Positions 21,452-60,943 of a stretch of DNA of 64,000 nucleotides are shown piece after piece. This DNA is from Eledone cirrhosa (taxonomy: Eukaryota): positions 162,254,001 to 162,318,000 of the forward strand of contig OZ024742.1 in NCBI GenBank assembly GCA_964016885.1, read 5' to 3'. The position numbers and the translations under genes are program-made. The notes below the pieces were generated by a model that was given only the letters and a program-made list of their open reading frames with translations, made no database searches and was not told where the DNA came from. Each line of letters begins with the position of its first letter. Position 1 is the first letter of the stretch.

Positions 21452-23884
21452 TTGATTCTAGGCCATGCTTCCATGTTTGGAATTTCTTCTCTAGTTCGGC
21501 CATTAAACTCCACTGTTATAGCCTGAAGGGTGATAATAAATAGTAGGGGGCTAAGAACGGAGCCCTGATGAACACCAACTTTTACGCTAAACTCTTCACT
21601 ATATTCGTTGTTAATTCTAACCTTGCTGACTGTTTCTTTATACATAGCTTGTATAGCTCTCACAAGCCATTCATCAACACCTAGTTTTCTAAGAGCCCAC
21701 CAGATAATGGAACGGGGGACTCTGTCGAAGGCTTTCTCCAAGTCGACAAAAGCTAAGTATAGGGGTTTACTTTTAGCTAGGTACTTCTCCTGTAGTTGTC
21801 ATAATACAAAAGAGCGTCTGTGGTACTTTTGCCTGACACAAACCCGAACTGCATTTCATCTAGATCAATTCTCTCTCTGATTAGTTGCGCTATTACTTTT
21901 TCTGTGACCTTCATGACCTGGTCGATTAATTTAATGCCTCTATAGTTACTCCTATATAGGGCATCTCCTTTACCCTTGTAGCAGTTAATGATGATGCTGC
22001 TACGCCAGTCCTTCAGAACAACCCCATTCTGTATGACTTGGTTTACTATCGGGGTGACCATGGTGTGTCTCACCATTCCAGAAGCTTTCAGCATTTCAGC
22101 AACTATTTCCGAAGGCCCAGCCACCTTACCCGTCTTCATATCTTTGATTGCCTTACTTATTATACTACCTTCGACTAACACTGCTGGTCCCTCTATTGGG
22201 TCGATGTGGGGAAGACTGTCTTTCTCCCATTTATTCTCCTCATTTAGTAGCCTTTCGTAGTGACACTTCCAAGCTACCTTCTTATCAGCGTCAGTGATGG
22301 CAAGTACACCATCATCATTAAGGACACACTTCTCCCCGACAATATCACGGTTTTCCTTGACACATTGCCTAGCAATCCTGAACACCTCGCGTTTTTGGTC
22401 GTCGCGTTGTAGAACATGCTTGAACTTTCTTTCCTCTGCTTCCCTTCTTGCGAAGTACACTTGTCTCCTAGCTTCCCTCCTGGCCACTTGATAGTCTTCT
22501 CTACTTCCCCCATCCCGCCATACTTTCCAAGCCTGCTTTTTGGCCTTGATTGACCTCTCCACCTTACTGTTCCACCACCAAGTTACTCTCCTCCTGTCTA
22601 TAGGCCTGCTCCACCCACAGGTTTCATCTGTCGCCTTCAGCAGGTTAGCTTTCAGGAATTCCAAATTATGAGTCTATGTTGAGAGGTGCATTCTTCATGG
22701 GGGAGGGATTTAGTGTTTACAACAGACACTCTGTCACGTCTCCTGGTAAGGATATAATCTACCTGGCTTGTGTGTTCCCCCGATCTATAGGTGATCAAGT
22801 GATTGTCTCGTTTTTTGAAGTTAGTGTTACAGATAGTTAGGTTATTTGCGTCACAGAATTCCAGGATTCTGGAGCCTTCCTCATTTCTAGTACCAAACCC
22901 ATAGCCTCCATGGATTCCGTCATAGCCGTCACAATGTTGTCCAACGTGACCATTTAGGTCACCAGCAATAATTATATAGTCACTGTCGGTTATTAGCTTA
23001 TCTGCCCACTTCGCTGCTACCATGATTTCTACTCCACCCAGCCCATTGTCATTTCCCACCCAGAAAAGCTTATAGCATCGTTCTTTACCCACGATGAATC
23101 TAGCAGGCCCACCCCTCCACCTGGTCTCTTGAATACAACAAACATCGACCTCCTTACGTTCAAGCATTTCTACAACCTCGTTAGAGCGACCCTTTAAGGT
23201 GCCTACGTTCATGGTACCAACTCTGAAGTTTGGGATTGCGTTTGTAGGGTGGGAGCGGTGGGGCGCAGGGGAGGGGGGGGGGGGGGGGGGGAGATGGGGT
23301 TATGTTAGCCATCCGCGGCCGAAACAAAGAGGAGGATTCCTTGCATTCTCGTCCATGAGGTGAATTTGTCTTTATCTTTGGCATTGTCACTGAGTGTCCA
23401 GATTTTTTTTCTTTTCAAACTCTCCAGAATTCCGTAGTCCATCCATCATATCGAAAGGCAACCAGGTAAGCGATAGCATAGGCCGCTGACTTATGATTGG
23501 CCCACGTAATAATGGTGATGCGTGAGGGAGGGATATTGGGTAGTTAGCGAGAAGGTTAAGGTTTAAATAAGATCCCCGTATTTTGGGCATAATTTAACAA
23601 GCATAAAACAATAATACAAGATTTGTTTTGAAAAATACGCTAGAATTATCGAATGGAAAAGCAAAGATTGGATTCGGGGAGAAATGATACAGATTGATGA
23701 ATGGACTAGCGAATTAAAATGGTGAGAAGAGTGCAGAAATATTTGTACGTTACATTACACCGTGATAGCAGCCTAGCCTGTCTAGGGTTGGCGATTTTTG
23801 AGGTTCGTATTTGCAGGATTTATTTTATATTTGGAGAGAGAGGAAGGGATTGGTGGCGAACCAGCATGATATAGAGGGGGGTGG
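21452..23884 (-). mobile_element. RTE-clade LINE: 5' UTR, endonuclease and RT up to the WKHGLES region, with internal deletions
   Basis: ORFs give NVGTLKGR..DVCCIQETRW, AGDLNGHVG, QVDYIL, NYRGIKL, QFGF, LEKAFDRV and GVHQGSVLSPLLF. Confidence 0.95.
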
Positions 23885-23898
23885 TATATATATATATT

Positions 23899-25112
23899 TG
23901 AAAATAGGGCACCGGTCCCATCCGGGAAATGGCCATTCTCAGTGTGTAGGAAAGGAGTAGGCAGAAATTCCATTTTATGTCCCAAATGCAAAGTATGGGT
24001 GCATAAAAGATGTAGTGGGATCACAGGTAAGCTAACTAAGAATATAGATTTTATATGTGGCCGGTGCTCTGGTGCAATAAGTAGCAGCAAGTGCCCACAG
24101 AATACTAGCTCATTCCATTGCACAGAAGGTTCTATAAAAATAGTGGACACCTTCCGTTACTTGGGTGACAAAATCAGCAGTGGGGGAGGGTGCTCTGAAA
24201 GTACAGTAGCTAGAGTCAGAACTGGATGGAAAAAGTTCAGAGAGCTTATACCACTATTAGCCGCTAAAGGGTTCTCTCTAAAAATGAAAGGCAGGTTGTA
24301 TGATGCCTGCATACGAACAGCAATGTTACATGGCAGTGAGACCTGGGTATTGTGTGCAGAGGATATACGCAGACTGGAGAGAAACGAAGCTTGCATGCTC
24401 CGCTGGATGTGTAATAGTAATATACGTGAACGGCAAAGCATAAACGAACTAAGGGAAAAATTAGAAATAAGAGGAATCAGATGTTGTTTACTTGAGAGAA
24501 GACTACGTTGGTACGGTCACGTGATGCGCATGAAAGACGACAGCTGTATAAAAAAGTGCAGGGCAATAAAAATAGACGGTAGCCACGGAGTAAGCAGACC
24601 CAGAAAAACCTGGGACGACTTAATAAATTCCGACCTCACACACTTACACCTCTCCAAGACAATGTCACTGGACCGAGACCTTTGGCGGTACACAGTAATA
24701 CAGAAGGCCCGCCTTACCTAAGTACAAAGTGAACCCTACTACAGTCAGTAGGCACCTCTAACAAAAATATACCCCCGTCCCACTACCCCCACCCCATCCA
24801 CACCACCCCTTTCAATGTAAAGTTATGTTGGTACCACAACATCCAGTCCGAAATAAATGAGGTCGTGTAGGTGTCACGACAAAAAAACACACAGTCCACG
24901 CTGTAATGTGGCCGTGTAGGTAACACGGTAAAAACCTCCCAGCCTACACTGTAAACGTGGTTGGTGTTAGGAAGGGCATCCAGCCGTAGAAAACCCGCCA
25001 GACAGTCCTATACGAGCAAGACAACCAATCTTGCCTCAAGTGGGAAAACACCCGTCTAAACCCATGCAAGCGTGGAATATGGACGTTAAACGATGATGAT
25101 GATGATGATGAT
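23899..25112 (+). mobile_element. RTE-clade LINE 3' fragment (PHD-like insert, RT thumb, 3' UTR, (GAT)n tail), fused head-to-head to the preceding element
   Basis: ORF 23942-24721 gives FRYLG, KGRLYDAC..MLHGSETW, RLRWYGHVMR and RPRKTW; ends ttaaacgatgatgatg. Confidence 0.95.
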
Positions 25113-25689
25113 GTGGGTTTCCTGGAATTTGGGAATAGTAATCATTAGACCTGTTAGGTTCCTAGAGTGTCTACAACCATTGGTATTGTTTTAGCTCTCA
25201 ACCTCCACATTTTTCCAATCTCTATTTCCAGGTCTTATTAATCATATTCATTTTCACAGTGATGATCTTATAACATTGGATCACTTAATAGACTCCCTAT
25301 CAAGTTATGTAACCTCACAAAGACTACAAATTCCACTGAGGTTAACTTTGGCTTTCATCCTTCCGGGGTTGATAAAGTAATTACTCGGTTACTATATAAT
25401 TGATTTTCTCCTCCTCCCTTTCTTTCAAATTTCTGGCTTTGTGCAAAAAGCAGAAATAATTATTATTGAGGTAGCAGAACAGTTAGAGCATTGGATGAAA
25501 TGCATTTGTTCTGGCTCTTTATGTTCTAAATTCAAATCACACTGCAGCAAACTTTGACTTTTATCCTTTGACATACATTTTTCCACACTTGCATGGATTG
25601 GACAGGTCCTTCTCAACACAGCATCTCTTCACTCATTACGTTCCTTCGTCATCTCTTCTGCCAGTCACAATGATTTGAGGTCAGCTCTC

Positions 25690-26040: not shown

Positions 26041-26181
26041 AAAGAAAAAACTCTGGTATGAAAAACTGTGTGTGAATTATCTATTTAGGCTTGCTCTGAA
26101 TATGAAATCTACAGCACAGACATATACACATATACACTTATACACATGCATACACACACATGCACTTATACATGCACATAT

Positions 26182-27243: not shown

Positions 27244-27278
<35 letters not shown>

Positions 27279-30795: not shown

Positions 30796-33700
30796 AATTT
30801 CTTTATTAGCCAAAAGAAGGGGACAAATACAAATGGGGAGTTTACATACAGGTATATGAAAATAAAACTATTAATAAAATAACAAATAACAATTGATATC
30901 CCCAATAGGGGGGAGGTGTTACACAGGGGTTGTACATACCCCGAAAAAATGTACAACCCTCATCTCCAGGAGCACCAAGAGTGAGTACTCCCTTCCTCTC
31001 TTCCTCTTTTTCCTCAACCTACAGGCTTATAAAGAGAGAAGGCCCAACCACTCGGGCCAGCTTTGCCACATTCACCCACCTTTTATAAAATTTGCTGGGG
31101 TACAGCACCTCTCTCTCTATTCTGATTCTTCTTCCAAAATGATATTTGAAAAAACGAATCAGTTGCTCGCCAGAGAGAAAGGTGTCTGACCTCAGCCCTT
31201 TTAACCTCGTCCACCATATAACCTCTTTCACCATAGCCATAACATATAGGAAAACCGCCTCTCCCTCGTTTTTGAAGGAGGGTGGCAGTTTGATCATGAC
31301 AATGGACTCGGTGGTCAACTGGATTGGTCCCACTCGCGACAATAGTCGTTCTACATAGCCCCACAGGTCGGTAACGCCTGGGCAGTGTACAAATGCGTGC
31401 GCGACGGTTTCCTCGTCGCGCACGCATCTCGGACAGATCTTTTTCGAAGGGTCCCTACCCGGGCACCCGTGTCTGTAGAGCTTGTCTCTAACTGGTAGAG
31501 CTCCTCGGTAGCACTGCCAGGCCAGGGACTTTTGGAAGTTGTCCATTGGTCCCGGGCGGAAGGTCCTACCGAACAGATTGGCCAGTTCGTCCTCCTCTAT
31601 GCCTAGAGCATGTCGTCGCACTTGCTGCGGACCAACCCTCTATAGACTGTCAAAGTGGAGTCTCCACTGATCGCCGGGTCCGTTTGCCAGAGGACTGTGA
31701 GCACCTGAGCACATTCGATGTGCCAGTCGCCCATTTCCTCGGTCTTTGCTTGACCCAGGACTGCAGCTCGGTCAGCGAGACGAGTCGTGGGAAGGCTCGC
31801 CTCACGATCGGGGCTCACACCGGTTGTCTGGTGAGGAATACGTGGAGGTGTCACAGCCTGAGCGCGTGTTTGCGCATCGTCAGCCACGGCATCCCCAGCC
31901 CTCTGTTTGAAGGGTGTTGGCAGCAGATAGATTTTCTCACCAAAGGAGCCCGTTTCTTTCATTTCGGGCATTTTGGTGAGCGTTTTGGCTGGACAAGGCA
32001 CGACAGTCAAGCGGTAGTAGATGATGAACGCTATAAAAGTGTTCGCCACCTCCGCTCGACCTTTCAAGGATAGTTTGCACTCAGCCCACTTCTGGGTGAG
32101 CGCAACACCTTGGCCATCACCTCGTTCCAGTTCTTCTCCACCTGGAGGTTCGGACCAAACCAGACCCCGAGCAGCTTTACCGGTCCTTCCATCCAGCGTC
32201 CGACGACGCCATCGGAAAGCATCGGTTTGCCTCTCCACGTTCCGAGTTGCAAACCGACGGATTTGTCCCGGTTCAGCTTCGCTCCTGTGAACCTTTCGTA
32301 TTCCTCCAGTAAGGTGCCGATCTCCCCGATTTGCGAGGTGCTCGACACTATTACTGTCACGTCGTCGGCGTAGGCCGACGCCACTTTTCGCAGTCCCTGT
32401 TCCAAAGGGATGCCCTGCAATAGCTCCAACTTCCGCAGTAGTGGCTCAAGAGTCAGTACGTACAGAAGGGAGGAGAGAGGGCATCTCTGTCGGATGGATC
32501 GCGTGATATGGAATGGCTCCGAGAGGTAGCCGTTCACCTCGACCCTTGAGCAGATGTTGCTGCTGTGCATTGCAGCAATCCAGTCCCTGAATACGGGTTC
32601 GAAGCCTGCCGCCTCGAGCACCGCATCCAGGTAACGATGGTCAACCTTATCGAAAGCCTTAGACTGATCCAAGTTGATCAGGGCCCCACCGAAGCCGGGT
32701 TTACACCCTACCCTCTCTATGATGTATCGCATGAGGTGGAGGTTGTCGTGTATGGACTTGGTCGGGATTGCGCATGTCTGCGCTTCTCCCACCAGGTTTT
32801 CGACGACAAGCGCCAGCCTCTTTGCCAACACCTTGGCCAAATTCTGTGTTGAACAGAGTTATGGGCCGGAAGTTGCCTATCTCATCCCCCTTGTTCTCGT
32901 CCTTCCTGACTAACGTGATTACGCCCTTGGTCACAGAACTGAGAATTCTCCCGTTCTGCTGCCAGTTGCAGTAGACCGCTTCCAGGAGACCGGACAACAA
33001 GTCCGGCATTGCTACGTAAAATTCATAGGGTAGACCGTCGAGACCTGGAGATTTGCGTTTGCCGCATTGGCTCAGCGCGTCCCCTATCTCAGCGGCCGAA
33101 ATCTGCCTTTTGCAGAACTTCGCCTCACTGTCTGAGAGTCGCGGTAGGCCGTCGAGGTATGAACCGAAATCCATAGCCCCTCCCGGCGCGCCGCCCCTCC
33201 CGAACAGTTGAGCAAAGTGCCGCTGAAAGGCCGCACACATTTGCTTTGGCTCACGTATCACGCGTCCGTCTTGGTCCTTCAAAGACAGAATCGTGGACTT
33301 GTTGTCACTTTTCGCCTCCGTCACTCGGGCCCAGCTAACAGCTTTGGCTCCCTCGTTTCCCCGAGCACGTATTTTGCTTCTGACAACGCAGCCTTCATAC
33401 TTTGCGTCGAAGAATTGGTCCAAGGCCGTTCTCATCGCTAGCACGCTGGCTACGTTGCCACTCCTAAGTGCCTCTTGTACTTTATCTACCAGTTCCTTTT
33501 TGGTCTTATTTCTATCTAACACTAATTCTTTACTAAAACCTATCGAGTCTAATCTAACTGCCCTCTTGAGAGAGTACCACCATCTGTTGTTGACAATGGC
33601 CCCCGTCAAGTGTTGCTTAACTAAAGTGCTAATCCGTCTACTGTAGGCTTTGCATGTCGGTAACGACAAGTTCAGCTTCCAGTAGCCGTGTCCCTGTCTA

Positions 33701-33923
33701 TGGGTTTTGTCAAGGTTGACTAAGCAGGTCACTAATTTGTGATCTGAATAGGCAACCATGAACATTTGTGGACAGCTTAACATGTCCCTATCCTTCTTTC
33801 TAACTAGAACCCTATCTAGGTACGATCTAGATGTTCCGCTGCGATTAGTACACGTCCACAGTGGCACAGTCGGAAAATCTAGTCGATATCTATCGGCCAG
33901 GTCAAATTAGCCGATTAACTGTT
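30796..33923 (-). mobile_element. Tx1/L1-clade LINE, 5'-truncated (EN C-terminus, RT, C-terminal Cys domain), frameshifted
   Basis: SYLDR..SDHKLV, GYWKLN, KSPGLDGLPYEFY, NFRPITL, LDQSKAFDKV, AYADDV and CPRC..ETVAHAFVHC; aataaagaaa tail; 11-bp TSD acaaatagata at 30785-30795 and 33924-33934. Confidence 0.95.
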
Positions 33924-37389: not shown

Positions 37390-37461
<72 letters not shown>

Positions 37462-39009
37462 AGGTTGGGAAAGGGAGAGCTTACCATCAATCACCTCCTC
37501 TTCATGGACGATCTTAAGCTCTTCGGGAAGAGTGAGAAGGAGTTGGATGTGCTTGTTGACACTGTCCGTATTTTCAGCAATGATATATGTATGCAATTTG
37601 GTATTAGTAAGTGTGGAGTCCTTGTGATGAAGAGGGGTAGATTGAGCAGAAGTAACGGAATGCAGGTGCCAACAGGTGAGATGATAAAGGAAATTGACAC
37701 TGAAGAAGGATACAAGTGTTTGGGTGTTCTGGAGGCTGATGACATCGGGAACAAAAAAATGAAGGAATTGATAAGAACTGAATACATTCGGAGAGTGGAG
37801 AGCGTATTGGGGTCACATCAGAACAGTAGGAATGCCATAAGTGCAGTAAATTCCCGAGCTGTGTCTATTATTAGATACAGTGCGGGAATTCTGAGATGGA
37901 ATGTTGCTGAACAAAAAGAAATGGATAGAAAGACTAGGAAGCTAATGACTATCTACAACATCTTCCACAGGAGGAATGATGTCGATAGACTCTACTTAAG
38001 GAGATCTGAAGGTGGAAGAGGTCTTATCAGCATAGAGGACTGTGTTCAGATGGAGAAAAACAACCTACACAAATACGTGACTGCTCGGAACTGTACTGAA
38101 GGAGAGGACAATGGACCAGGGGATGTCCAGGGGGGAAATAACAACAAGGAGAAAGAGCAGCCTTCATGAAAAATCCCTTCATAGTACCTTCTTTGAGAAA
38201 ACTGAATTCAGAGATCCACAGACATGGAACTGGTTGAAAGGAGGAGACCTTAAAAAGGCTGCAGAGGGGGTGTTAATGGCTGCGCAGGAGCAGGCCCTCA
38301 AAACGAAGTGGTTGAAACACCATATTTACAAGGAGGAGGCTAGCCCACTGTGCAGGATCTTTGGAGAGAGAGAGAGGAGACTGTGGCTCACATTGTATCC
38401 GAGTGTAAACACCTAGCCCAGACTCACTATAAGAGCTGGAGACATGATGTGATGGGCGATGGAGACATGATGTGATCCACTGGCACCTATGTGGAGTGGG
38501 CAATTTACCACATTCTGAGAAGTGGTATGAGCATAAGCCAGAGTCGGTGATAGAAAACGATCAGGTGAAGGTGCTGTGGGATTTTAGGATACAGACGGAC
38601 AAGAAACTGGAACACAATAGACCTGACCTGGTGGTTTTGGACAAAGAAAAAAGATCGTGCCTGATTATGGATGTGGCCTGCCCATTCGAAACGAGAGTGC
38701 AAGAGAAGGAGAGGGAGAAAATTAACCGATACCAGGACTTAAAGTGGGAGGTAAGGAGGATTTGGAACTGCCATGAGGTCAAAGTGGTACCGATTGTCAT
38801 AGGCGCACTAGGGACTATCTCAAAAAGTTTCCAGGGATGGTTAAAGAAAATTGGCCCCTTCACGCTTTTTGGAACGCTTCAAAAGGCATGCTTGCTGGGA
38901 ACAGCAAGAACCCTCCGATACGTCCTGAATATCTGAGGCTGCAAGTAGTGGCTTGATATTCATTTCAACAAACTTTCCAGTTAACTAACATCAACGACAG
39001 AGACTCAAA

Positions 39010-39046
<37 letters not shown>
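37462..39046 (+). mobile_element. R4/Dong-like RLE LINE, 5'-truncated, embedded in (AAT)n
   Basis: HLLFMDDLKLF, RLYL.R..GGRGL, RHD..IHWHL, RPDLVV..DVACP, KINRYQDL, VVPIVIGALG and LQKACLLGTA; (AAT)n on both sides. Confidence 0.92.
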
Positions 39047-39047
<1 letters not shown>

Positions 39048-40440
39048 CTTTCTTTATTAACCACAAGGGTTTACATAAAGTAGACATTAAGGACAGTACA
39101 GGACAACACAGGACGGTACAAATGGGCATTTCTGCGTGTAAAAAAAAACAGAAGATGTAATAAAAAAATAACAATGAAAAATTCCCCAATAGGGGGGAGA
39201 CTTCCGAGGGACATTTGTGGAGAAAGCCCACTAAAAGGCCACAGTGACCCGGACCACCAGGGCAAGTGCCCTCTCCCAGTTTTCCACCTTTAATTTACAG
39301 ACACATACTCAGAGTAGGCCCATTCACTCGGGCCATACTTGCTTCTCTCACCAATCTTTCAACAAAATGCTGGGAAGAGAGCACTTCCCTCTCTACCCTG
39401 ATTTTCCTTTTCAAATGAAATTTGAAAAAGTTAATCAGGGCATCACCGAAGAGGTAAGTGCTCGTCTTCAGCCCTTTCAAACGTGTCCACCATACTATCT
39501 CTTTCGCCATGGCCACCAGACAGATAAAAACTGCCTGCTCTTCCCGGCTAAAGGAAGAGGGCGGGGCACCTCCATGCCTGTAGAGTTTATCCCGAACTGG
39601 CAAAGCTCCTCGGTAGCACTGCCAGGCCAGGGATTTCTGGAAGTTGTCCATAGGCCCCGGCCCGAAAGTCCTTCCTAAGAGATTGGCTAGTTGATTTTCG
39701 TCGACGCCTAGAGTTTCTCCAAGTACGTCGTCGATCTTCCCCTCCACTAATCCTCTATAGAACGCCGAGGTGGAGTTTCCACCGATCACATTGCCCGATT
39801 GGTCGAGGGCTGTGAGCGCCTGAAGACATTCCAGTCTCCAAGCGCTCCCTCTCGGTCTTCGCTTGACCCAGGACTGCAGCTCCATCAAGGAGACGAGCTG
39901 GGGAAAGACGTGTCTAGCAAACGGCGACCACACCTGATCACCGTCGAGGAAGAGGTGGAGATGTCGTAGCCTGAGCGCGTGTCTGCGCATCATCAGCCAC
40001 GGCATGCCCAGTCCTCCACGTAGCGGGTGTTAACAGCAGATAGATCGCCTGACCATCGGAGCGCGTCCCTTCCACAAAAAGCGAAAGAGCAAACGCTCCA
40101 GCGCAGTCAGGCGGGGCTTAGGACAAGGTACGACGGTCAGGCGGTAGTAGATGACGGACGCGATGTACGCGTTAGCCACCTCCGCTCGACCTTTCAGGGA
40201 TAGCTTCCTCTCCGCCCATTTCTGGGTGAGAGAAGCCACCCTGCTCGTCACCTCGTCCCAGTTTTAGTCCGTCTGGAGGTCCGGACCGAACCAGACCCCT
40301 AACAATTTAACTGGTCCGTCCGTCCAGCGCCCGACGACGCTGTTGGACGGCATGGACCTGCCTCTCCAGGTGCCGAGCTGCAGGCCCACTGACTTTTCCT
40401 GTCACCGCTTCGTATTCTCTTAGTGTAGTGCCGATCGCCT
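39047..40440 (-). mobile_element. Tx1-like LINE 3' fragment, tail abutting (AAT)n
   Basis: LSLKGRAEVAN, SLAWQCYRGALPVRDKL; aataaagaaa tail. Confidence 0.9.
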
Positions 40441-44200: not shown

Positions 44201-44860
44201 AGAGAGAGGAGACTGTGGCTCACATTGTATCCGAGTGTAAACACCTAGCCCAGACCCACTATAAGGGCTGGAGACATGATGTGATGGGCAGGGTGATCCA
44301 CTGGCACCTATGAAAAGTAAACAATTTACCACATTCTGAGAAGTGGTATGAGCATAAGCCAGAGGCGGTGATAGAAAACGATCAGGTGAAGGTGCTGTGG
44401 GATTTTAGGATACAGACGGACAAGAAACTGGAACACAGACCTGACCTGGTGGTTTTGGACAAAGAAAAAAGATCGTGCCTGGTTGTGGATGAGGCCCTCC
44501 CATTCGACACGAGAGTGCAAGAGAAAGAGATGGAGAAAATTAACCGATACCAGGACTTAAAGTGGGAGGTAAAAAGGATTTGGAACTGCCATGAAGTCAA
44601 AGTGGTCCCGATTGTCATAGGCGCACTAGGTACTATCTCAAAAAGTTTCCAGGGATGGTTAAAGAAAATTGGCCCTTCACGCTTTTTGGAACGCTTCAAA
44701 AGGCATGCTTGCTGGGAACAGCAAGAACCCTCCGATACATCCTGAATATCTGAGGCTGCAGGTAGTGGCTTGATATTCATTTCAACAAACTTTCCAGTTA
44801 ACTAACATCAATGACTGAGACTCAAAGTACAATAACAATAATAATAATAATAATAATAAT
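41283..44860 (+). mobile_element. R4/Dong-like RLE LINE, near full length, several frameshifts
   Basis: ATG at 41358, NWTKDLN/ECY..S.P..GYRKRM N-terminus, RT motifs (NYRPITCL, EQKGC, IDYKKAFD, GIFQGDSLSPLLF, FMDD), CCHC (CRIC..ETVAHIVSEC), PD..D nuclease and (AAT)n tail. The 5' boundary is approximate. Confidence 0.93.
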
Positions 44861-47800
44861 GGTTTCTTTATTGGCCACAAGGGCTAACATGATACAATAG
44901 AAATGTGTAGAAACAAATTAAAAAATTCAAACAAAAATTCCCTAATAGGGGGGAAACTTCCGAGGGTCACTTGTTGCGAAAACCACACAAAAGACCATGG
45001 CCACCCTGACCACAAGGGCAAGCGCTCTCTCTCAATTCTCCCACTCATCAGTCTACAGGCGCATACTCAGAATGGGCCTGTTCACTCGAACCAGACTCGC
45101 CACTTTCACCCACCTTTCAACAAACTTACTAGAAGACACTTGCCTCTCCACCCTGATTTTCCTCTTCAAGTGAAACTTGAAAAAGTTAATCAGGGATTGG
45201 CCAGAGAGGAAAGTGTCCGTCTTCAATCCTATCAACCTTGTCCACAACACAGTCTCTTTTGCCATGGCCACTAGGCAAATGAAAACTGCCTGCCCTTCCT
45301 CCTCCTTAAATGTGGACGCCAGGGACTCAGTCGATAACGGGATCTGTCCGACAGCAACTGTTCGACATAGCCCCACAAGTCACCAATACTTGGGCACTGA
45401 ACAAGTGTGTGCATGACAGTTTCGTCGCTCTGCGTGCATCTCGGACAGGCTCGGCTGACAGCACTTCCGTGCCTGTAGAGTTTATCTCGAACCGGCAACA
45501 CTCCTCACTAGCACTGCCAGGCCAGGGTTTCTGGAAGTTGTCCATAGGCCCCAGACTGAAAGTTCTCTCAAAGAGAGCGAACAGCTGATTGTCTTCGACA
45601 CCCAAGATCTCCCTGAGAATGTCGTCGCTCTTCGCCTCCACTAGTCCTCCATAGAACGCCGAGGTGGATGTTCCACTGATACTAATGCCCAGCTGGTAGA
45701 GTGCAATGAGCGCTTGGAGACATACCAGCTTCCAAGTGCTATCCCTCAGTCTTTTCCCGATCCAGGACTGCAGCTCTGTCAAGGAGACGAACTGGGGAAA
45801 AACGCGTCTGGCAAACGACGACCGCAACTATTCACCACCAAGGAAGCACCAGAGATGTCGCAGCCTTAGCGCATGTTTGCGCATTATCAGCCATGGTATG
45901 CCCGTCCTCCACGCAATGGGTGCTGACAGCAGATGGATCGTCTGACCATGGGAGCACATCCCTTCCACAATAAGTGGAAGAGGAGGTGCTCCATTTTGGT
46001 CAGACTTGGGCAGGGGCAAAACATGACAGTCAGGCGGCTTCGCAGATCACAAATTTGTGGTCTGTGTAGTCGACTGCTTTAAATTATGGACAACCCTCAC
46101 TAGCCTTATCTATTTCCCTACAGAATATCCTATCTAGATACGATCTGGATGACCTGATGCGGTTTGCCGATGTCCACATTGGCACATTCGGATAATCCAG
46201 TTGATACCTGTCAGACAGTTCAAAACATCTGAGCAGGTTGGTGAGGCTTCTACACCCTCTTACCCTATCTACTAGCCCCACATAATCCCAGCATGCATCT
46301 AAGATATCGTTCCAGTTGCCCATTAACACTAAAGAGTGGGACGTTCCCAGAAAGGTTTCTTGATGTCTGAAGAAAGTTGTTGGGGCGTAGATGGCTACTA
46401 GCCTAAAAGCATTACCTTCGCTGCCAGTCATGTCCAGCACCACTGACTTACCTTCTGGGTCCAGGAAGATGGCCCGTATGGCAAGATCCAAGCCTCTCCG
46501 AAAAAGCACAGCAACTCCGCACCTCCGCTCCCGGACGGCTGGGAGATGCATATACATCGTAGCCGCTGAAGATCAGTACAAAGGCTCGTGCTTCGGAAAT
46601 TCTGGTCTCACTGATGACCACCATATCTATGTTTAGTGACCTGAGGTCGTTGAGCAGGTGACCCTGCTTCCAAGATGACCCCAAGCCACGTACATTTACA
46701 CTGCCTATTCTAAGTACGGCCATTTGGGTGAGGAAAGGGGTAAGTGAGAAAGGATCACTTACCTTGATCGTGTGGGAAAGGGACAGTCGAACCGTCCCTT
46801 CAGTTGGTCATGGGTGTCAAGATAATATCCATGTATATTCTCTTGGTAAGCGACCCTCTGAAGTCCCCAACGGCGACTGTTTGTATTGTTCCAGTTGGAT
46901 CTCAACAATTTTTATGTCTTTTAGTAATGTTCTTGGTGGGGTGTAGTAAGTTTTGTCTGTAATCTCTGTGTTGCTTTATATGTTCTATAGGTTCTTTATT
47001 TGCAAAGTTTATAACTGTGTACTTTTTTGTTGCTGTTGGGTGTGTGTGCCTTGTTGTGATTGCGATGTTGGTGTTTGTGATGATGCTAGCGGTGGTGTGG
47101 TTGTTGTTGGTGGTGATGCTTGTGGAGGTGATGGTGTTGCTGCAAGTTGCCTTGCCACCTTTACCCCTCTTTGTTTGCCTTCGCTTTTGGAGCGTGGAGC
47201 TAAGGGTTATTTTTTTTTTCTTTTTGTGGCAGACCTTTTGCCACTTCACTCGCGCCTCACACTCTATGTCAGATTCTGTGGGATCTGGGGGGAGCATGAG
47301 CTCCATGGCTATTGGGGGTGGTGGTGAAGCCCGCTCTAGTGATTTTGTCACAGGTGTAGCTACTGCAACTGTCGCTGTTTCAGTTGTCTGTGGCCTTGGT
47401 ATGGGTGCCACAGACGTTGCCCTCCTACTCACCGCAGAAGGGCCTGATGCCTCTGTTGCCTGCCCTGCTCCTGGTAGCAGCGAACCAGGCATCGGAAGGA
47501 GTGGGACCATCTTCTTCGGTGTCTTCTGCGTGCAAAAGGCGCTGAGGTGACCCTTTGACCTACAGAGATAGAACTTTGGGCGCCTTCCTTCCACGCTTAT
47601 GGGGAGTAAAACCCCTTCTTGGAGGTCTATGATGTCCGGGATAGCCTCGATACACTCTTGGTCAGTTTGGATTAGCATTTGCATTCCAGTACCTGAGCAG
47701 TTCTCCCTCTCTATCCTCTGCACTTGCAGCATGGTCATCCTGTTCTTGACTCCAGTGAGTACAGACGCGGCCAGCCAAGATATGGGCACATTGGGTGGGA

Positions 47801-48480
47801 CGTGGGTCACTTTGACCCTCACAATCTTCTGCCTGCAGTAGGAGAGCACCAAAACTACCCCGTCACTCTTTATGGTTACCAAAGAGTGAGAGTTCACCTC
47901 TTGTTGGGTGGAAAAAAGTACGTCCGCGGTGGCATACTTTTTGCCTTGGGTGATGTGGGTTTTGTGTGCCCACACGCACCCCAAGGCTTTTTGAATTCAA
48001 GCCTCTGTGGCTCTCTCCATCTAATGTGATCTTTTGCTTACAGTGCGGTAAGTCACCGCCCGCAAGTGTTAGTCCTTGAAAAAATTGGGTGGAGGTTTCA
48101 GGGAGACTCGATTGGCTTTGCTAGCCACCATGGCCCTTGCGATCGCCATCTCCTCCTCCGTGACTATCACTGTCTCTACATTTATGGTCACCCCTCGCAA
48201 AAGAAATGGTCTCTCTTTTTAGTGGCACCATTGTTGCTGCCGCTACTGCTGCTACTGGTCTTGTTGTTGGTGCTGTTGCTGCTGCAACTGCTATACTGGT
48301 GTGGTTGTTGCTTCTGCCGCTGCTGCTACTTTCCTTGTTGCCGTTAGTGCTGGTTTTGGTAGCAGTATCTCCACAGTCATGTGCTGCTATAGCAAGGGCA
48401 CTGGCACTGCCAGTGCCAGTCTCATAAACACCTTCCTTCTTGCCAAATGTATCTCCAGCAGCCGCTTCTCGACCACCACT
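44861..48480 (-). mobile_element. Tx1-like LINE with ORF1 (zinc-knuckle-like), EN domain, RT deleted, C-terminus and 3' tail
   Basis: ORF1 46902-47984 (VEGRRPKFYLCRSKGHLSAFC); EN SVNVRGL..ISETR, AIYAP, SYLDRI; C-terminal CPRC..ETVMHTLVQC. The 5' boundary is uncertain. Confidence 0.85.
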
Positions 48481-49316: not shown

Positions 49317-49694
49317 AGCAGCACCGTCACAACTAGCACCGTTACAACTAGCAACTCTTCTGAAACCTATATAGGCTCTACTTCAAACTGCTTCAAAACC
49401 AGATACAATTCGCACATCCATTCTTTAAAAAAACACAGTCTAGCCAACTCCACTTCACTATCTAGCTACATACACTATTTAAAAACTAAAAATAGATCTT
49501 ATACACTTAAATGGGAAGTGATAGGTAAGGCGACATCGTACAAACCACCTAATAAATGTTGTAACCTCTGTCTACTAGAGACCCATACTATTATCTTCTC
49601 AAACCATAACCTCCTTAATAAAAAATCAGAAGTGTTCGCGTCATGCCAGCACCGCTTCCAACACTCCTTCCAAAACTTTAAACCCAATATATAG
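49317..49694 (+). pseudogene. Penelope-type GIY-YIG endonuclease C-terminal half (no start codon, absent from ORF track)
   Basis: My translation: ETYIGSTSNCFKTRYNSH...STSLSSYIHYLK...LKWEVIGKATSY..PNKCCNLCLLETHTI...LLNKKSEVFASCQHR...NI*. Confidence 0.9.
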
Positions 49695-54945: not shown

Positions 54946-54954
54946 TTTCAATTC

Positions 54955-55860
54955 TGTCTGAACAACGGTGCTACTCCAGAGCAGTGGAAAACTGCCAGTG
55001 TCATTTCTCTGTTCAAAAAGGGTGACCACACATCACCTGTCAACTATCATCCAGTTAGTCTTACTAGCTGAATTGCCAAACTGATGGAATCCTGTGTCAG
55101 AGAAACACTTTGGAACTTCTGGAACTCTCACAGTTTTATTTGGCCCTTGCAATTTGGATTTATCTCTAACTACAGCTGCTGTGATCAACTTATCGAGTTT
55201 CTTGAAGACATCACCCGGATCACTGATGGCGGCTCATGGGTGGATGTTGTTTACCTTGACTTTGCTTATGCTTTCAATTCTGTGCCACACAAAAGACTTA
55301 TGGCAAAACTCTCTGCAACTCAAGTTGGCTGTGGACAAGTGTACCACCATGCATTTTGGGAGTAAAAACCTAGCATCCACATATTAATATCAAGAAGTCT
55401 TCTTGTGAATGTGACCTGGCATTATTGTCATCAGCGATTTACGTTGGACAAAGCACATCACTAAAATTGTCAAGAAGGCCTTTGTCAGCCACTCTCCAGC
55501 TATCGATTTAAAGCTATATATAGCTATGGTATGGCCACACTTAGAATTTGCATCACCAGTCTGGAACCCCTGTCTTGCTCAGAACATTGACTTCCTGGAA
55601 ACTGTTCAGAGACGTGCAACCAAGCAAATACCCTCCATCAGGCATCTACCATACTCTGAACGCCTTACTTCCCTGGGCATGGATACATTGAAGCTCTGAC
55701 GTCTGGCAACTGACTTGGTAAACACCCACAACATTATTAACCATTTTGCCGACAACAACCCTGAGCACCTTTTTGATTTACATGTGTCTAATACATGTGG
55801 GCATGCCTACAAAGTCAGAAAACAGCACAGCTACCATGACTTTCGGAAACAATTTTTTTC
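54955..55860 (+). mobile_element. CR1-like LINE RT/3' fragment, decayed
   Basis: WK.A....FKKGD...NY.PVSL, QFGF, VDVVYLDFA.AF.SVPHKRL, P.LEFASPVWNP, VQRRATK, T.GH.YK..K...RKQFFS. Confidence 0.85.
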
Positions 55861-55861
55861 G

Positions 55862-56403
55862 TGGTCTACCTCTAACACGTCTTCCTTCAACTGGCATTTC
55901 CTGGCACTTCTTCACCCATCAGTCATCCTCCATGCGCATCACATCTCCATACCATCGCAGTCTCCTCTCTCGCACACTACAATCTATCCCTCTCAGACAC
56001 AGTTTCTCTCTCAACACATTCATGCTCGGTCGTTCACGCACATTGACATTGTACATCCAACGGAGCATGCTTGCCTCATTTCTCTCCAGCCGTCGCATAT
56101 CCTCTGCAGTTACTGCCGATGTCTCACTGCCATGCAGTATCGCGCTCCTCACACAGGCATCATATAACCAGCCTTTCGTACGCAGGGAGAAACCCTTCTT
56201 CGTCAGCAGAGGAAGCAGCTCCCTATATTTCTTCCAACCTGTCCTCATTCTAGATACTATGGCCTTGGAACACCACCCTCCCATGCTAATCTGATCTCCT
56301 AGGTACCGGAAGCTATCAACCACTTCTATAGCACCCACCTGCATTTGAAAAATGTGTCTATCAATGCGACTTCTACTGTCTAATTTCCCTGTACATCTAC
56401 TGC
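55862..56403 (-). mobile_element. RTE 3'-ORF fragment, older subfamily
   Basis: VVDSFRYLGD..MRTGWKK..LYDACVRSAILHGSET..RLRWYG. Confidence 0.9.
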
Positions 56404-56408
56404 ATACG

Positions 56409-56437
<29 letters not shown>

Positions 56438-56477
<40 letters not shown>

Positions 56478-57652
56478 GTTTAACATCCATCTTCCACGCT
56501 TGCATGGGGTTGGACGGGAGTTTTCCCACTTCAGGCAAGAGTGGTTGTCTTGCTCGTATAGGACTGTCTGGCGGGTTTTCTACGGCTGGATGCCCTTCCT
56601 AACACCAACCACGTTTACAGTGTGGGCTGGGAGGTTTTTACCGTGTTACCTACACGGCCACATTACAGCGTGGACTGTGTGTTTTTTTGTCGTGACACCT
56701 ACACGACCTCATTTGTTTCGGACTGGATGTTGTGGTACCAACATAACTTTACATTGAAAGGGGTGGTGTGGATGGGGTGGGGGTAGTGGGACGGGGTATA
56801 TTTTTGTTAGAGGTGCCTACTGACTGTAGTAGGGTTCACTTTGTACTTCTGTATTACTGTGTAGCGCCAAAGATCTCGGTCCAGTGACATTGTCTTGGAG
56901 AGGTGTAAGTGTTTGAGGTCGGAATTTATTAAGTCGTCCCAGGTTTTTCTGGGTCTGCTTACTCCGTGGCTACCGTCTATTTTTATTGCCCTGCACTTTT
57001 TTATACAGCTGTCGTCTTTCATGTGCATCACGTGACCGTACCAACGTAGTCTTCTCTCAAGTAAACAACATCTGATTCCTCTTATTTCTAATTTTTCCCT
57101 TAGTTCGTTTATGCTTTGCCGTTCACGTATATTACTATTACACATCCAGCGGAGCATGCAAGCTTCGTTCCTCTCCAGTCTGCGTATATCCTCTGCACAC
57201 AATACCCAGGTCTCACTGCCATGTAACATTGCTGTTCGTATGCAGGCATCATACAACCTGCCTTTCATTTTTAGAGAGAACCCTTTAGCGGCTAATAGTG
57301 GTATAAGCTCTCTGAACTTTTTCCATCCAGTTCTGACTCTAGCTACTGTACTTTCAGAGCACCCTCCCCCACTGCTAATTTTGTCACCCAAGTAACGGAA
57401 GGTGTCCACTATTTTTATAGAACCTTCTGTGCAATGGAATGAGCTAGTATTCTGTGGGCACTTGCTGCTACTTATTGCACCAGAGCACCGGCCACATATA
57501 AAATCTATATTCTTAGTTAGCTTACCTGTGATCCCACTACATCTTTTATGCACCCATACTTTGCATTTGGGACATAAAATGGAATTTCTGCCTACTCCTT
57601 TCCTACACACTGAGCATGGCCATTTCCCGGATGGGACCGGTGCCCTATTTCC
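56438..57652 (-). mobile_element. RTE 3' fragment fused head-to-head to the following element
   Basis: ORF 56807-57610 is almost identical to 23942-24721; (CAT)n tail. Confidence 0.95.
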
Positions 57653-57665
57653 AAATATATATATA

Positions 57666-60600
57666 CCCCCCCCCCCCCCTCTATATCATGCTGGTTCGCC
57701 ACCAATCCCTTCCTCTCTCTCCAAATATAAAATAAATCCTGCAAATACGAACCTCAAAAATCGCCAACCCTAGACAGGCTAGGCTGCTATCACGGTGTAA
57801 TGTAACGTACAAATATTTCTTCACTCTTCTCACCATTTTAATTCGCTAGCCCATTCATCAATCTGTATCATTTCTCCCCGAATCCAATCTTTGCTTTTCT
57901 ATTCGATAATTCTAGCGTATTTTTCAAAACAAATCTTGTATTATTGTTTTATGCTTGTTAAATTATGCCCAAAATACGGGGATCTTATTTAAACCTTAAC
58001 CTTCTCACTAACTACCCAATATCCCTCCCCCACGCATCACCATTATTACGTGGGCCAATCATAAGTCAGCGGCCTATGCTATCGCTTACCTGGTTGCCTT
58101 TCGATATGATGGATGGACTACGGAATTCTGGAGAGTTTGAAAAGAAAAAAAATCTGGACACTCAGTGACAATGCCAAAGATAAAGACAAATTCACCTCAT
58201 GGACGAGAATGTAAGGAATCCTCCTCTTTGTTTCGGCCGCGGATGGCTAACATAACCCCCCCCCCTGCGCCCCACCGCTCCCACCCTACAAACGCAATCC
58301 CAAACTTCAGAGTTTGTACCATGAACGTAGGCACCTTAAAGGGTCGCTCTAACGAGGTTGTAGAAATGCTTGAACGTAAGGAGGTCGATGTTTGTTGTAT
58401 TCAAGAGACCAGGTGGAGGGGTGGGTCTGCTAGATTCATCGTGGGTAAAGAACGATGCTATAAGCTTTTCTGGGTGGGAAATGACAATGGGCTGGGTGGA
58501 GTAGGAATCATTAAGATAATAGAAGTAAATAGAGTGAACGACAGAATAATTAAAATAAGACTTGTCCTCAATAGAACTACTGTGACAGTAATATCTGCGT
58601 ACGCACCCCAATCCGGACTGCCCGGCACTATAAAAGACAGATTCTATGAGACACTAATGCTCACTACCTCCCAAATAACCGACAGGAACTATATAATTAT
58701 TGCTGGCGACCTAAATGGTCAGGTTGGACAACATTGTGACGGCTATGACGGAATCCATGGAGGCTATGGGTTTGGTACTAGAAATGAGGAAGGCTCCAGA
58801 ATCCTGGAATTCTGTGACGCAAATAACCTAACTATCTGTAACACTAACTTCAAAAAACGAGACAATCACTTGATCACCTATAGATCGGGGGAACACACAA
58901 GCCAGGTAGATTATATCCTTACCAGGAGACGTGACAGAGTGTCTGTTGTAAACACTAAATCCCTCCCCCATGAAGAATGCTCATAATTAGCGACCTCATA
59001 GTCAGGAAGAGACGTACTCCACAACAGAAGAGGACTATCCTCAGGAGAAAAATATGGAAGCTAAAGGACCCCACAGCCAGTAATAAATTTAAAAGCATAT
59101 TACTTGATGCTTTGATAGTAAGGAAGAGCAATTAGAGTCGTACAATATAGAGGAACAGTGGGAATTCCTGAAAGCTAACCTGCTGAAGGCGACAGATGAA
59201 ACCTGTGGGTGGAGCAGGCCTATAGACATGAGGAGAGTAACTTGGTGGTGGAACAGAAAGGTGGAGAGGTCAATCAAGGCCAAAAAGCAGGCTTGGAAAG
59301 TATGGCGGGATGGGGGAAGTAGAGAAGACTATCAAGTGGCCAGGAGGGAAGCTAGGAGACAAGTGTACTTCGCAAGAAGGGAAGCAGAGGAAAGAAAGTT
59401 CAAGCATGTTCTACAACGCAACGACCAAAAACGTGTTGATGAATGGCTTGTGAGAGCTATACAAGCCATGTATAAAGAAACAGTCAGCAAGGTTAGAATT
59501 AACAACGAATATAGTGAAGAGTTTAGCGTAAAAGTTGGTGTTCATCAGGGCTCCGTCCTTAGCCCCCTACTATTTATTAATGCCCTACAGAGGAGTTCAA
59601 GACCGGCTGCCCATGGGATCTCCTATATGCAGATGATCTAACGCTCATAGCTGAATCAATGGCTGAACTAGAGAAGAAATTCCAAACATGGAAGCATGGC
59701 CTAGAATCAAAAGGCCTTAAAGTTAACTTGTCTAAGACTAAAGTTCTAGTTTGTAGGAAGGAAAATAGGGCACCGGTTCCATCTGGGAAATGGCCATGCT
59801 CAGTGTGTAGGAAAGGAGTAGGCAGAAATCCATTTTATGTCCTAAATGCAAAGTATGGGTACATAAAAGATGTAGTGGGATCACAGGTAAGCTAACTAAG
59901 AATATAGATTTTATATGTGGCCGGTGTTCTGGTGCAATAAGTAGCAGCAAGTGCCCACAGAATACTAACTCATTCCATTGCACAGATAGTTCTATAGAAA
60001 TAGTGGACAGCTTCCGTTTCCTGGGTGACAAAATCAGCAGTGGGGGAGGGTGCTCTGAAAGTACAGTAGCTAGAGTCAGAACGGGATGGAAAAAGTTCAG
60101 AGAGCTTATACCACTATTGGCCGCTAAATGGTTCTCTCTAAAAATGAAAGGCAGGCTGTATGATGCCTGCATACGAACAGCAATGTTACATGGCAGTGAG
60201 ACCTGGGCATTGTGTGCAGAGGATATACGCAGACTGGAGAGAAACGAAGCTTGCATGCTCCGCTGGATGTGTAATAGTAATATACGTGAACGGCAAAGCA
60301 TAAACGAACTAAGGGAGAAATTAGGAATAAGAGGAATCAGATGTTGTTTACTCGAGAGAAGACTACGTTGGTACGGTCACGTGATGCGCATGAAAGACGA
60401 CAGCTGTATAAAAAAGTGCAGGGCGATAAAAATAGACGGTAGCCACAGAGTAGGCAGACCCAGAAAAACCTGGGACGACTTGATAAATTCCGACCTCACA
60501 CACTTACACCTCTCCAAGACAATGTCACTGGACCGAGAGCTTTGGCGCTACACAGTTATACAGAAGAACCGCCTTGCCTAAGTACAAAGCGAAACCTACA

Positions 60601-60943
60601 GTCAGTATGCACCTCTAACGAAATACACCCCCCCCCCCCTAAATGTAAAGTTATGTTGGTACCACAGTATCCAGTCCGAAACAAATGAGGTCGTGTAGGT
60701 GTCACGACAAAAAAACAAAACAAAAAAAAATACAGTCCACGCTGTAATGTGGCCGTGTAGGTAACATGGTAAAACCTCCCAGTCCACACTGTAAACGTGG
60801 TTGGTGTTAGGAAGGGCATCCAGCCGTAGAAAACCCGCCAGACAGTCCTATACGAGCAGGACAACCAATCTTGCTTCAGGTGGGAAAACTCCCGTCCAAA
60901 CCCATGCAAGCGTGGAAGATGGACTTTAAACGATGATGATGAT
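57666..60943 (+). mobile_element. RTE-clade LINE from 5' UTR to (GAT)n tail, internally deleted (much of RT N-terminal half missing)
   Basis: ATG at 58171; EN motifs NVGTL, QETRW, SAYAPQ, GDLNG, VDYIL; QGSVLSP, LYADDL (59622-59640), PHD-like insert and thumb; 3' UTR. Confidence 0.95.

Follow-up and report, generated by a model that had tools for sequence, protein, structure and literature searches.

Within the window, the whole 64,000-nucleotide stretch of Eledone cirrhosa DNA that we analysed, two composite loci built from an RTE-type LINE lie 33 kb apart. Copy 1 consists of an inverted RTE 5' part containing the 5' UTR, the endonuclease and most of the reverse transcriptase (RT) (21452..23881, minus strand), a junction formed by a G run, (TA)6 and TTT (23876..23899), and a sense 3' part with a PHD finger, the RT C-terminal region, the 3' UTR and a (GAT)7 tail (23900..25113, plus strand). 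Its left flank holds the last codons of a decayed ORF of a REL-type LINE (21330..21451, minus strand; identified by terminal-motif ranking), and its right flank the upstream part of the same ORF (25114..25320, minus strand; identified by HMM and tblastn). Copy 2 begins with an inverted 3' piece with a (GAT)14 tail (56437..57652, minus strand), of which about 56437-56541 is probably the end of an older element. This is followed by the junction (AAA, (TA)5 and a C run; 57653..57680), by the 5' part common to copy 1 (57681..59710, plus strand, with a 710-nt deletion at 59432/59433), and by an RT continuation and ordinary 3' end of a different element lineage (59711..60943, plus strand, the 3' end starting at 59761). 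The outer end of the inverted part of copy 1 corresponds to copy-2 position 59710, and the first 50 nt of the RT continuation from 59711 are absent from copy 1. On the left of copy 2, (TA)14 (56409..56436) links the inverted tail with a 5'-truncated RTE fragment of another family, whose 5' end adjoins it (55855..56408, minus strand); on the right, TA-rich flank follows 60943. A short 5'-truncated copy of the composites' own RTE family, its 5' end adjoining (TA)5, lies at 7968..8159 (minus strand).

An earlier note on this DNA had reported one head-to-head junction common to both loci, and we find it at 23876-23899 and, inverted, at 57653-57680, as a G/C run, (TA)6 or (TA)5, TTT and the 3' piece. 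The two inverted 3' pieces are, as also described there, closer to each other (17 of 1,143 columns differ) than to the ordinary end at 59761-60943 (50/1,143 and 52/1,143), and have a C-rich block and ETWVL in common. The inverted arms of about 1.2 kb ascribed to copy 2 are likewise present, but they come from two different elements and are 4.5% apart. A TIR DNA transposon or foldback element was rejected as an account of copy 2: the arms differ at 52 of 1,143 columns, are LINE 3' ends and decay separately, with 5 and 5 derived amino-acid changes.

The element has a single ORF with an AP endonuclease and RT, no ORF1, and Pfam matches to Exo_endo_phos, RVT_1 and PHD; from this structure it is putatively assigned to the RTE clade. 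The ORF starts about 490 nt from the element's 5' end, is colinear with relatives of 1,040-1,090 aa and sums to about 1,063 aa, and the one named homologue, from Octopus bimaculoides, is 56% identical to the RTE protein. RTE 3' ends carry (GAT)n tails, and 5' truncation is frequent in the family. Octopus RTE-2_OV, with a single ORF of 1,109 aa (PMC9115989; octopus RTE LINEs also in PMC13282606), is alike by description: both have one ORF (about 1,060 aa here), an endonuclease, an RT, a zinc-binding motif, a 5' UTR of several hundred nt and a microsatellite 3' end. Unlike RTE-2_OV as portrayed there, the finger here scores as PHD, and both copies are dead.

An older REL-type (restriction-like endonuclease) LINE, presumably R4/Dong/Hero-like, is split by the clean insertion of copy 1, whose two flanks are consecutive parts of one ORF. 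On the left, site 21423 (minus strand) ranks third of 127,840 positions for the REL-type terminal motif, behind two known window copies; this flank is significant only in the position-specific scan, not alone in the HMM scan. The right flank matches HMM model positions 205-233 (E 0.006, the top match beyond the two known copies) and is also found by tblastn (E 4e-7). When the right-flank peptide was put through a full profile search, only an unrelated repetitive protein came back; a word-based search gave no match, and the empty site gave no significant match when blasted against the window's own REL-type ORFs. Given the 28-residue spacing in 52 of 54 REL-type homologues, the target loss at copy 1 is, by arithmetic, 0-3 nt.

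The geometry of copy 1 is that of twin priming, as the earlier note had suggested: the inverted part stops at the equivalent of 59710 and the sense part begins at the equivalent of 59761, leaving the halves consecutive with 50 nt missing. Ordinary family members run straight across the inversion breakpoint, as shown by the opposite-strand joint 21452-23900 in 1 contig in X1 and in 396 reads from 9 starts in X19. The RT end and the tail each show 4 nt of microhomology, a length that chance or end joining could also yield. A 10-20 bp target-site duplication was not found at copy 1, where at most 4 nt are repeated; copy 1 therefore works like twin priming, but not as a standard L1-type case. On whether both parts came from one RNA, 17 of the 29 checked difference rows are common to both copies, of which 10 fall in the 5' part and 7, at a similar density, in the 3' piece, the 29 being taken from 40 of 490 rows with 6 flank rows and 5 indel rows left out.

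Twin priming, which yields 5'-inverted L1 insertions, was reportedly described by Ostertag and Kazazian in 2001. In later sources, about 70% of 5'-inverted L1 copies show 2-5 bp microhomology (PMC2912911), L1 inversions usually have a 10-20 bp target duplication, and 5' inversion in culture is almost only seen with L1 (PMC4245944). Like these insertions as described there, copy 1 has an inverted 5' part head to head with a tailed sense 3' part, and its parts are consecutive, with a short loss, outer microhomology and an otherwise intact target. Unlike them, it is RTE-type, has no 10-20 bp target duplication, carries (TA)n at the inversion junction and has an inverted part that reaches the 5' end, and its structure was duplicated afterwards. 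Among the papers on twin priming and non-LTR inversions covered by our search, no RTE inversion was found.

The reused junction demands a second event, a point on which we agree with the earlier note. Divergence between the copies is about 1% in the interior of the shared block and 6-10% at both its ends. At the outer RT end (21452..21560, minus strand) 6 of 97 positions differ compared to 17 of 1,524 inside (p 0.002; 0.03 counting three neighbouring changes once), and in the 5' interior the difference is even, with 11 transitions and 6 transversions. At the other end, in the final 73 nt ahead of the copy 1 tail (25021..25093, plus strand), the closeness of the inverted pieces ends: 7 of 73 positions differ compared to 10 of 1,070 inside the 3' piece (p 4e-5 by Fisher's test and 0.003 by a scan permutation), and copy 1 has no derived letter in common with copy 2 there when set against two other copies. 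Variability rises towards the tip in each of the four tails compared, and some of this terminal excess may therefore reflect a higher local mutation rate. No duplication of unique flank was found, the 2-kb flanks having in common only dispersed repeats at 71-93%, and a segmental duplication with unique flanks was rejected for that reason. The inverted segmental duplication proposed earlier thus stands as a local, DNA-level duplication, but not as one with a common unique flank, and at copy 2 the block ends inside RTE homology. Given the diverged block ends, the close interior and the lack of a common unique flank, the reading of copy 2 that fits best is a recombination of copy 1 between two older RTE ends. 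Ectopic gene conversion or gap repair between dispersed repeats transfers sequence non-reciprocally, with ends in homology, a near-identical interior and unchanged flanks, and the proposed copy 2 tract has all of these features. Unlike ordinary ectopic conversion, the tract contains an inversion junction and bridges oppositely oriented elements, resulting in the 1.2-kb inverted arms.

In addition, we compared the deletions in the two copies. Copy 1 has three large deletions and a 1-nt frameshift, and copy 2 has deletions of 16, 22, 21, 16, 710, 10 and 1 nt. The mid-endonuclease sequence missing from copy 1 (156 nt) and the 710 nt missing from copy 2, first part of the RT included, agree with the earlier account; the GTGTT microhomology claimed for the 710-nt deletion does not, the exact microhomology being 1 nt and GTGTT sitting 5 nt inside the left break. 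Nor are the deletions independent, as had been thought, for in three pairs the positions are coupled between the copies. At 22991..23021 (minus strand), 21 nt are lost from copy 2, 4-10 nt are kept and 156 nt are lost from copy 1 (copy 2 about 58522-58677); at 22664..22688 (minus strand) the corresponding lengths are 16, 7-11 and 171 nt (copy 2 about 58989-59159), and at 21506..21526 (minus strand) they are 10, 10-14 and 59 nt (copy 2 about 59598-59656). All three large copy-1 deletions (3/3) therefore begin 4-14 nt past the end of a small copy-2 deletion (p about 2e-4, post hoc, the pattern having been picked after sight), and four other copy-2 deletions are without a copy-1 partner. The bases absent from copy 2 exist in copy 1 and carry the ORF on. 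This positional coupling is a new observation, made as a post hoc pattern. The paired deletions may record how the copy was made, and common deletion hot spots may be another source of the coupling.

Our preferred reading, evenly poised between right and wrong, is that copy 1 is a twin-primed RTE insertion that was later copied once by local recombination into the copy 2 site. In a first step, whose mechanism we infer from the geometry of copy 1, twin priming would have brought a full-length RTE RNA into the old REL-type LINE: priming on the (GAT)n tail at one target end would have given a cDNA of 1.2 kb, priming inside the RT on 4 nt of microhomology at the other would have given a cDNA reaching the 5' end, and the two cDNAs would have been joined head to head with the loss of 50 nt. 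Copy 1 would then have decayed as a single dead locus, as is seen for the 3' piece: of the 11 non-synonymous differences from the ordinary end, 5 are amino-acid changes at conserved sites that both inverted pieces have in common. The rarity within the family of letters common to the two copies, detailed below, fits this as well. Subsequently, non-crossover homologous recombination, in the form of gap repair or ectopic gene conversion, could have copied about 3.5 kb of copy 1, including the junction, into a place 33 kb away where a minus-strand RTE tail and a longer plus-strand RTE were already present. Copy 1 is homologous to both recipient ends, and copy 2 would consequently retain the old tail tip on its left side and, on its right, the RT and 3' end of the older element; the 1.2-kb inverted arms would be a by-product. 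Finally, the three adjacent deletion pairs, a pattern observed directly, may have arisen in paired copies, or else on either strand of a single duplex that had been damaged.

The main rival, possible though doubtful, reverses the order of events and would place copy 2 first, as a full-length RTE and a 1.2-kb 5'-truncated RTE head to head in (TA)n beside a third RTE fragment, with copy 1 a partial copy of it. Copy 1 would have been laid into a DNA break 33 kb off via microhomology at both ends, or retrotransposed from antisense read-through RNA; copying would have stopped 50 nt before the second arm, with fold-back beyond, and later conversion would have kept the interiors alike. In support of this order, (TA)n is found at the junction, at both copy 2 ends and at two other RTE 5' ends, whereas the copy 1 flanks are not TA-rich and show no clear target duplication. 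TA-rich sequence follows 5 of the 14 RTE-like tails in the window, kept by eye from 24 (GAT)n tracts, compared to a background of 3.3% (p 7e-5); once the composite's own tails are set aside, the count is 3 of 11 (p 0.005). The (TA)5-6 of the junction resembles the remnant of a target site, in which case twin priming would have to borrow the (TA)n from the source element's flank. This, the lack of a 10-20 bp target duplication at copy 1 and the near restriction of 5' inversion in culture to L1 count against our preferred reading. Microsatellite stacking is documented for the SaTar arrays of plant Mutator-like DNA transposons (PMC5907723); like these, 55855-60943 is a non-nested chain of elements separated by microsatellites, although the elements here are RTE LINEs. 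However, out of about 2.9 kb available, the end point must then happen to lie no more than 50 nt from where the 3' piece begins, an extra homogenising event is needed for divergence at the ends only, and the outer ends of copy 1 lie in non-RTE sequence and so cannot be older element ends. Decay at conserved sites, with 5 derived changes per side, does not discriminate between copy 1 first and copy 2 first.

Returning to copy 1 as the twin-primed insertion, we also considered how its duplication could have left coupled deletions. A bolder and likewise doubtful proposal is that a single damaged duplex gave rise to both copies, one from each of its strands or sisters, or that the donor was repeatedly cut behind a collapsing D-loop, copy 1 being a natural twin-primed non-L1 RTE. 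Breakage-replication/fusion, which PMC12807874 reports for cancers, for congenital disease and for human cells in culture, is similar in its reciprocal breakpoints with small overlap, split over two segment copies. Unlike the cases presented there, we see three pairs in 1.5 kb, with order and orientation kept and overlaps of 4-14 nt, and an old germline event would be deduced here from two paralogues.

An improbable alternative is a third, low-copy composite as the source, whose antisense, RTE-tailed read-through RNA was mobilised in trans as a non-autonomous unit. Each copy does finish at an RTE tail with different flanks, and a non-autonomous master could also collect amino-acid changes. The shared letters are nevertheless nearly absent from family depth, compared over four of 21 runs for the copy 1 sequence only. 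Summed depth is about 600 at the 5' tip and about 1,000,000 in the RT, relative to 15 for a contig of unique flank sequence. Shared letters had depths of 0/143 and 0/109 at 23810, of 15/302,092 at 22597 and 70/1,151,000 at 24622 in X1, and of 0/255 reads at 23232 in X19, and in the 3' piece the ordinary end has the family-majority letter at 10/10 sites listed. The test is weak: it draws on 40 of 490 difference rows, rare variants are lost from contigs, depth is zero even for the letters of copy 1 itself at 23655 and 23734, and tens of copies could still hide in 1% of raw reads, such that raw-read shares of about 1% are compatible with a small family. X19 reads depart from the X1/X2 majority letter in 128/137 cases at 23245 and in 12/28 at 23337. 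Two retrocopies within 33 kb are also unlikely, with the 5' tip depth near 600 giving a crude bound of about 40 copies, and the tail tips differ at 7/73 positions, which led us to reject a propagating composite that is alike up to its tail. The composite master propagated as a unit, one of two origins offered by the earlier note, is disfavoured by the near absence of the shared letters from a very abundant family, weak as that test is, by block ends whose divergence exceeds that of the interior 5-9 times, unlike in a retrocopy, and by the 33-kb spacing. The composite is probably not a new mobile element.

Mixed reads are very unlikely to have produced copy 2, or the coupled deletions, as an artefact of assembly or polishing. 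Misaligned reads could in principle yield small deletions beside another copy's gaps, and among the 24 listed out of 133,829 contig pieces no independent one spans the junction, nor does any listed read. However, the copies differ evenly by about 1%, exact runs reach at most 258 bp when the copies are compared and 75 bp when the copy 2 arms are, unlike in a fold-back chimera, the bases missing from copy 2 sit in copy 1 and continue its ORF, and an X1 contig matches 354 nt of the copy 1 right flank without difference. Metagenome contig scans for the junction and the 5' tip gave 0 matches, which is uninformative for an animal repeat.

Cephalopods are thought to edit RNA heavily, and the inverted arms are a possible source of double-stranded RNA. 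The double-stranded stem anticipated by the earlier note is correctly predicted from arm complementarity and would form if copy 2 were read through, with duplex energies of -487 to -559 kcal/mol per 300 nt for the copy 2 arms. The kinds of change in the runs on copy 1 are symmetric and uninformative on editing.

Taken together, these results carry modest weight, coming from one pair of dead loci. If our reading is right, copy 1 is a rare natural twin-priming-like inversion in a non-L1 LINE, inverted arms of 1.2 kb can result from local recombination among dead LINEs where these are abundant, and the coupled deletions offer a signature by which the formation of such duplications can be tested. 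If the damaged-duplex proposal is true, the locus would preserve adjacent overlapping breakpoints as a germline fossil, in which each copy lost its own side of three 4-14-nt overlaps. A process of the breakage-replication type would then duplicate repeats and build kilobase inverted arms in an invertebrate genome, and its adjacent-breakpoint signature would be countable genome-wide.

Copy 1 (21452-25113) and copy 2 (56437-60943) lie in repeat-rich animal DNA and belong to an element with AP endonuclease, reverse transcriptase (RT) and PHD finger domains and a (GAT)n 3' tail. Its ORF sums to ~1,063 aa and is colinear with relatives in which a single ORF encodes 1,040-1,090 aa; one named homologue, from Octopus bimaculoides, is 56% identical, which would suit a cephalopod host. 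On structure we provisionally call the element an RTE, and its layout resembles that of octopus RTEs in the available excerpts of PMC9115989 and PMC13282606. When reverse-complemented, copy 1 aligns with copy 2 over the tail, the junction and the stretch on to 59710, and the junction common to both copies is present as described in the earlier note, as are the C-rich block and ETWVL in both inverted 3' pieces (the ~1.2-kb parts beyond the junction). These pieces differ from each other at 17/1,143 columns and from the ordinary 3' end of copy 2 (59761-60943) at 50/1,143 and 52/1,143, in line with their reported mutual closeness. They have five derived amino-acid changes in common at conserved sites, one at a residue conserved in 64/75 homologues, and the ordinary end has five of its own; the shared changes indicate that the junction-bearing ancestor was already decaying ahead of duplication. 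The arms of copy 2 are complementary, and read-through RNA is predicted to pair.

Copy 1 has inserted cleanly and has the geometry of twin priming, which bears out an earlier likeness. Its inverted part stops at the equivalent of 59710 and its sense part begins at that of 59761, with 50 nt between; ordinary family members are continuous over this point, the joint (21452-23900, opposite strands) being seen in one contig of set X1 and in 396 reads with 9 starts in read set X19. Both flanks come from one decayed minus-strand LINE with a restriction-like endonuclease (REL-type). The window contains an ORF of this kind, and a profile of 120 homologues of it matched the right flank with positions 205-233 of the model (E 0.006, the top match besides the two known copies; tblastn E 4e-7) and the left flank at 259-271, which alone is non-significant, and a position-specific scan ranked the left-flank site 3 of 127,840. 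From the homologue spacing, 28 residues in 52/54, we calculated a target loss of 0-3 nt, allowing for a flank frameshift. Microhomology of 4 nt is present at either end, and reading of the sequence at the ends of copy 1 revealed no target duplication longer than 4 nt. In excerpts of the L1 literature, 5'-inverted copies have 2-5 bp microhomology in ~70% (PMC2912911) and 10-20 bp target duplications (PMC4245944), the latter feature being absent at copy 1. The PMC4245944 excerpt also places the peak of RTE target duplications at 10-12 bp and describes inversion in culture as almost exclusive to L1, apart from a single Nimb-2 case; no RTE inversion appears in the available portions of PMC6007223 or PMC5389967.

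Copy 2 looks like the recipient. Divergence in the interior of the shared block is even at ~1% (10/1,070 in the 3' piece, 17/1,524 in the part between junction and 59710). Before the tail the copies differ at 7/73 positions (Fisher p 4e-5; scan permutation p 0.003), and at the RT end at 6/97 (p 0.002; 0.03 with three neighbours counted once). The three ends are equidistant at the tail tip (7, 6 and 7 of 73), with no derived letter common to copies 1 and 2 among the 73 columns compared. A fourth tail is likewise more variable near its tip, so a raised local rate accounts for part of the terminal excess. Both ends of copy 1 lie in non-RTE sequence, so it is copy 2 that should carry the ends of older elements, namely the tail tip (~56437-56541) and the RT and 3' end from ~59550. 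Such a transfer, 33 kb from the donor, with both ends in homology and donor flanks unchanged, would be a product of gap repair or ectopic conversion. Twin priming would have made copy 1, followed by local transfer to the copy 2 site, a sequence of events to which we give an even chance. Taken together with the stacked-insertion rival below, this makes local DNA-level duplication, in either direction, probable. That part of an earlier suggestion of segmental duplication is therefore favoured; a segmental duplication with unique flanks failed the flank test, the 2-kb flanks having dispersed repeats alone in common.

The strongest competitor, which we consider unlikely, is that insertions stacked at one (TA)n, with copy 2 first. 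Stacking accounts directly for the junction, and (TA)n is found there and at each end of copy 2, as well as at the 5' ends of an other-family RTE fragment (56409-56436) and a short same-family copy (8160-8169). TA-rich sequence follows 5/14 hand-picked tails against a 3.3% background (p 7e-5), or 3/11 without the composite's (p 0.005). Stacking requires, besides homogenisation at a later stage, that the 50-nt gap be a coincidence or the result of a block by fold-back. The copy 2 junction would then resemble the stacked microsatellite insertions of SaTar arrays, although these are DNA transposons (PMC5907723, in excerpt).

The earlier proposal that a master propagated the composite fares worse, and we regard a small master as improbable. 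Copy 1 was compared with 4 of the 21 runs listed, one of RAD reads and three of contigs. The family has very high copy number and a rare 5' tip (summed depth ~600 vs ~1,000,000, and 15 for a unique flank contig; these are depths, not copy numbers). The 29 difference rows checked, from 40 listed of 490, comprised 17 letters common to both copies, 6 in copy 1 only and 6 in copy 2 gaps. The majority letter was the ordinary end's at 10/10 rows checked in the 3' piece, making ETWVL, where 96-100% of depth has the other letter, a rare letter and no subfamily mark. Depth remaining for shared letters was 0 at 23810, 15 (X1) and 583 (contig set X2) at 22597, 70-76 at 24622 and 0/255 X19 reads at 23232. 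This rarity is weak but consistent evidence against a master: contigs lose rare variants (at 23655 and 23734 even the letters of copy 1 itself have no depth), positions 23245 and 23337 are non-private in X19, and raw reads at ~1% share could conceal tens of copies. No independent junction-spanning record occurred among the 24 contig pieces listed (of 133,829). An assembly or polishing artefact is very improbable, as longest exact runs of 258 bp (copy 1 vs copy 2) and 75 bp (arm vs arm) and 11 transitions to 6 transversions in the 5' interior speak against fold-back or duplication artefacts.

The mid-endonuclease loss in copy 1 and the 710-nt RT loss in copy 2 are as described, but exact microhomology at the 710-nt join is 1 nt, the reported GTGTT lying 5 nt inside the left break. 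Nor are the deletions independent in position, as had been claimed: three copy-1 deletions are each coupled to an adjacent copy-2 deletion, a new observation of a post hoc pattern. In element order, each site runs from the left side through segment a, a short spacer and segment b to the right side, with a missing from copy 2, b from copy 1 and the spacer retained in both (a/spacer/b: 21/4-10/156, 16/7-11/171 and 10/10-14/59 nt at sites 1, 2 and 3). Spacer-free fits score only 3-6 points lower, so the spacers, though likely, are short. If deletions were placed at random, the probability that all three have a partner no more than 15 nt away is 2e-4 when either side counts and 6.5e-5 when the side must be the same, values for a pattern picked post hoc with n=3, four more copy-2 deletions being unpartnered. 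The pattern matches the outcome expected on opposite strands if a staggered overlap is resected, and also that of a D-loop that collapses, with donor sequence lost behind it and the new strand skipping a short distance. Large-loop repair of heteroduplex is another candidate. Shared hot spots are the plain rival: a G-quadruplex-like motif lies directly upstream of site 1, and another family deletion (joint 22522-23029) ends near it. The pairs resemble adjacent overlapping breakpoints of breakage-replication/fusion in the excerpt of PMC12807874; L1-induced rearrangements (bioRxiv 10.1101/2024.12.14.628481, in part) are related.

We also recorded other features. An inverted pair (48652-49212/50826-51386; 561 bp, 99.8% identical, 1,613 nt between) encloses part of an ORF that weakly matches GIY-YIG (49317-49694, E 7e-4, below the Pfam cut-off); this is presumably a young element of Penelope-like type whose terminal copies are inverted. 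A SINE-like fold-back (20615-21350, ~620 bp, 89% identity) ends 100 nt left of copy 1, and a smaller one lies at 14833-15183. At 2236-3568, ~22 tandem copies of a 60-bp unit (90-95% identity) leave both strands open; Pfam matches there are probably repeat artefacts. Two REL-type LINE copies (37458-39544 and 41414-45299, 87% identical) each have a piece of a different LINE after them, and an RT frame in the second is open over 680 aa. Decayed minus-strand LINE pieces (46084-47996 and 31019-33906) we take to be L1/Tx1-like; one contains an ORF1-like frame of 364 aa without a Pfam match. Copy 2 was also considered as a TIR element and fails the TIR test.

Within the family, depth is 180,000 where the ORF starts and 600 at the 5' tip, a drop of ~300-fold across the 5' UTR (23270-23849); the UTR itself may be confined to one small subfamily. 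The variant with the 22522-23029 joint, internally deleted and seen as one contig of depth ~200 in each of X1 and X2, is possibly a multi-copy non-autonomous derivative. Frequent (TA)n beside RTE 5' truncation points and tails (55855-56436, 8160-8169) suggests TA targeting or microsatellite birth at insertion. Together, copies 1 and 2, one dead pair of loci, work as a 5'-inverted L1 would if ectopic conversion came after it.
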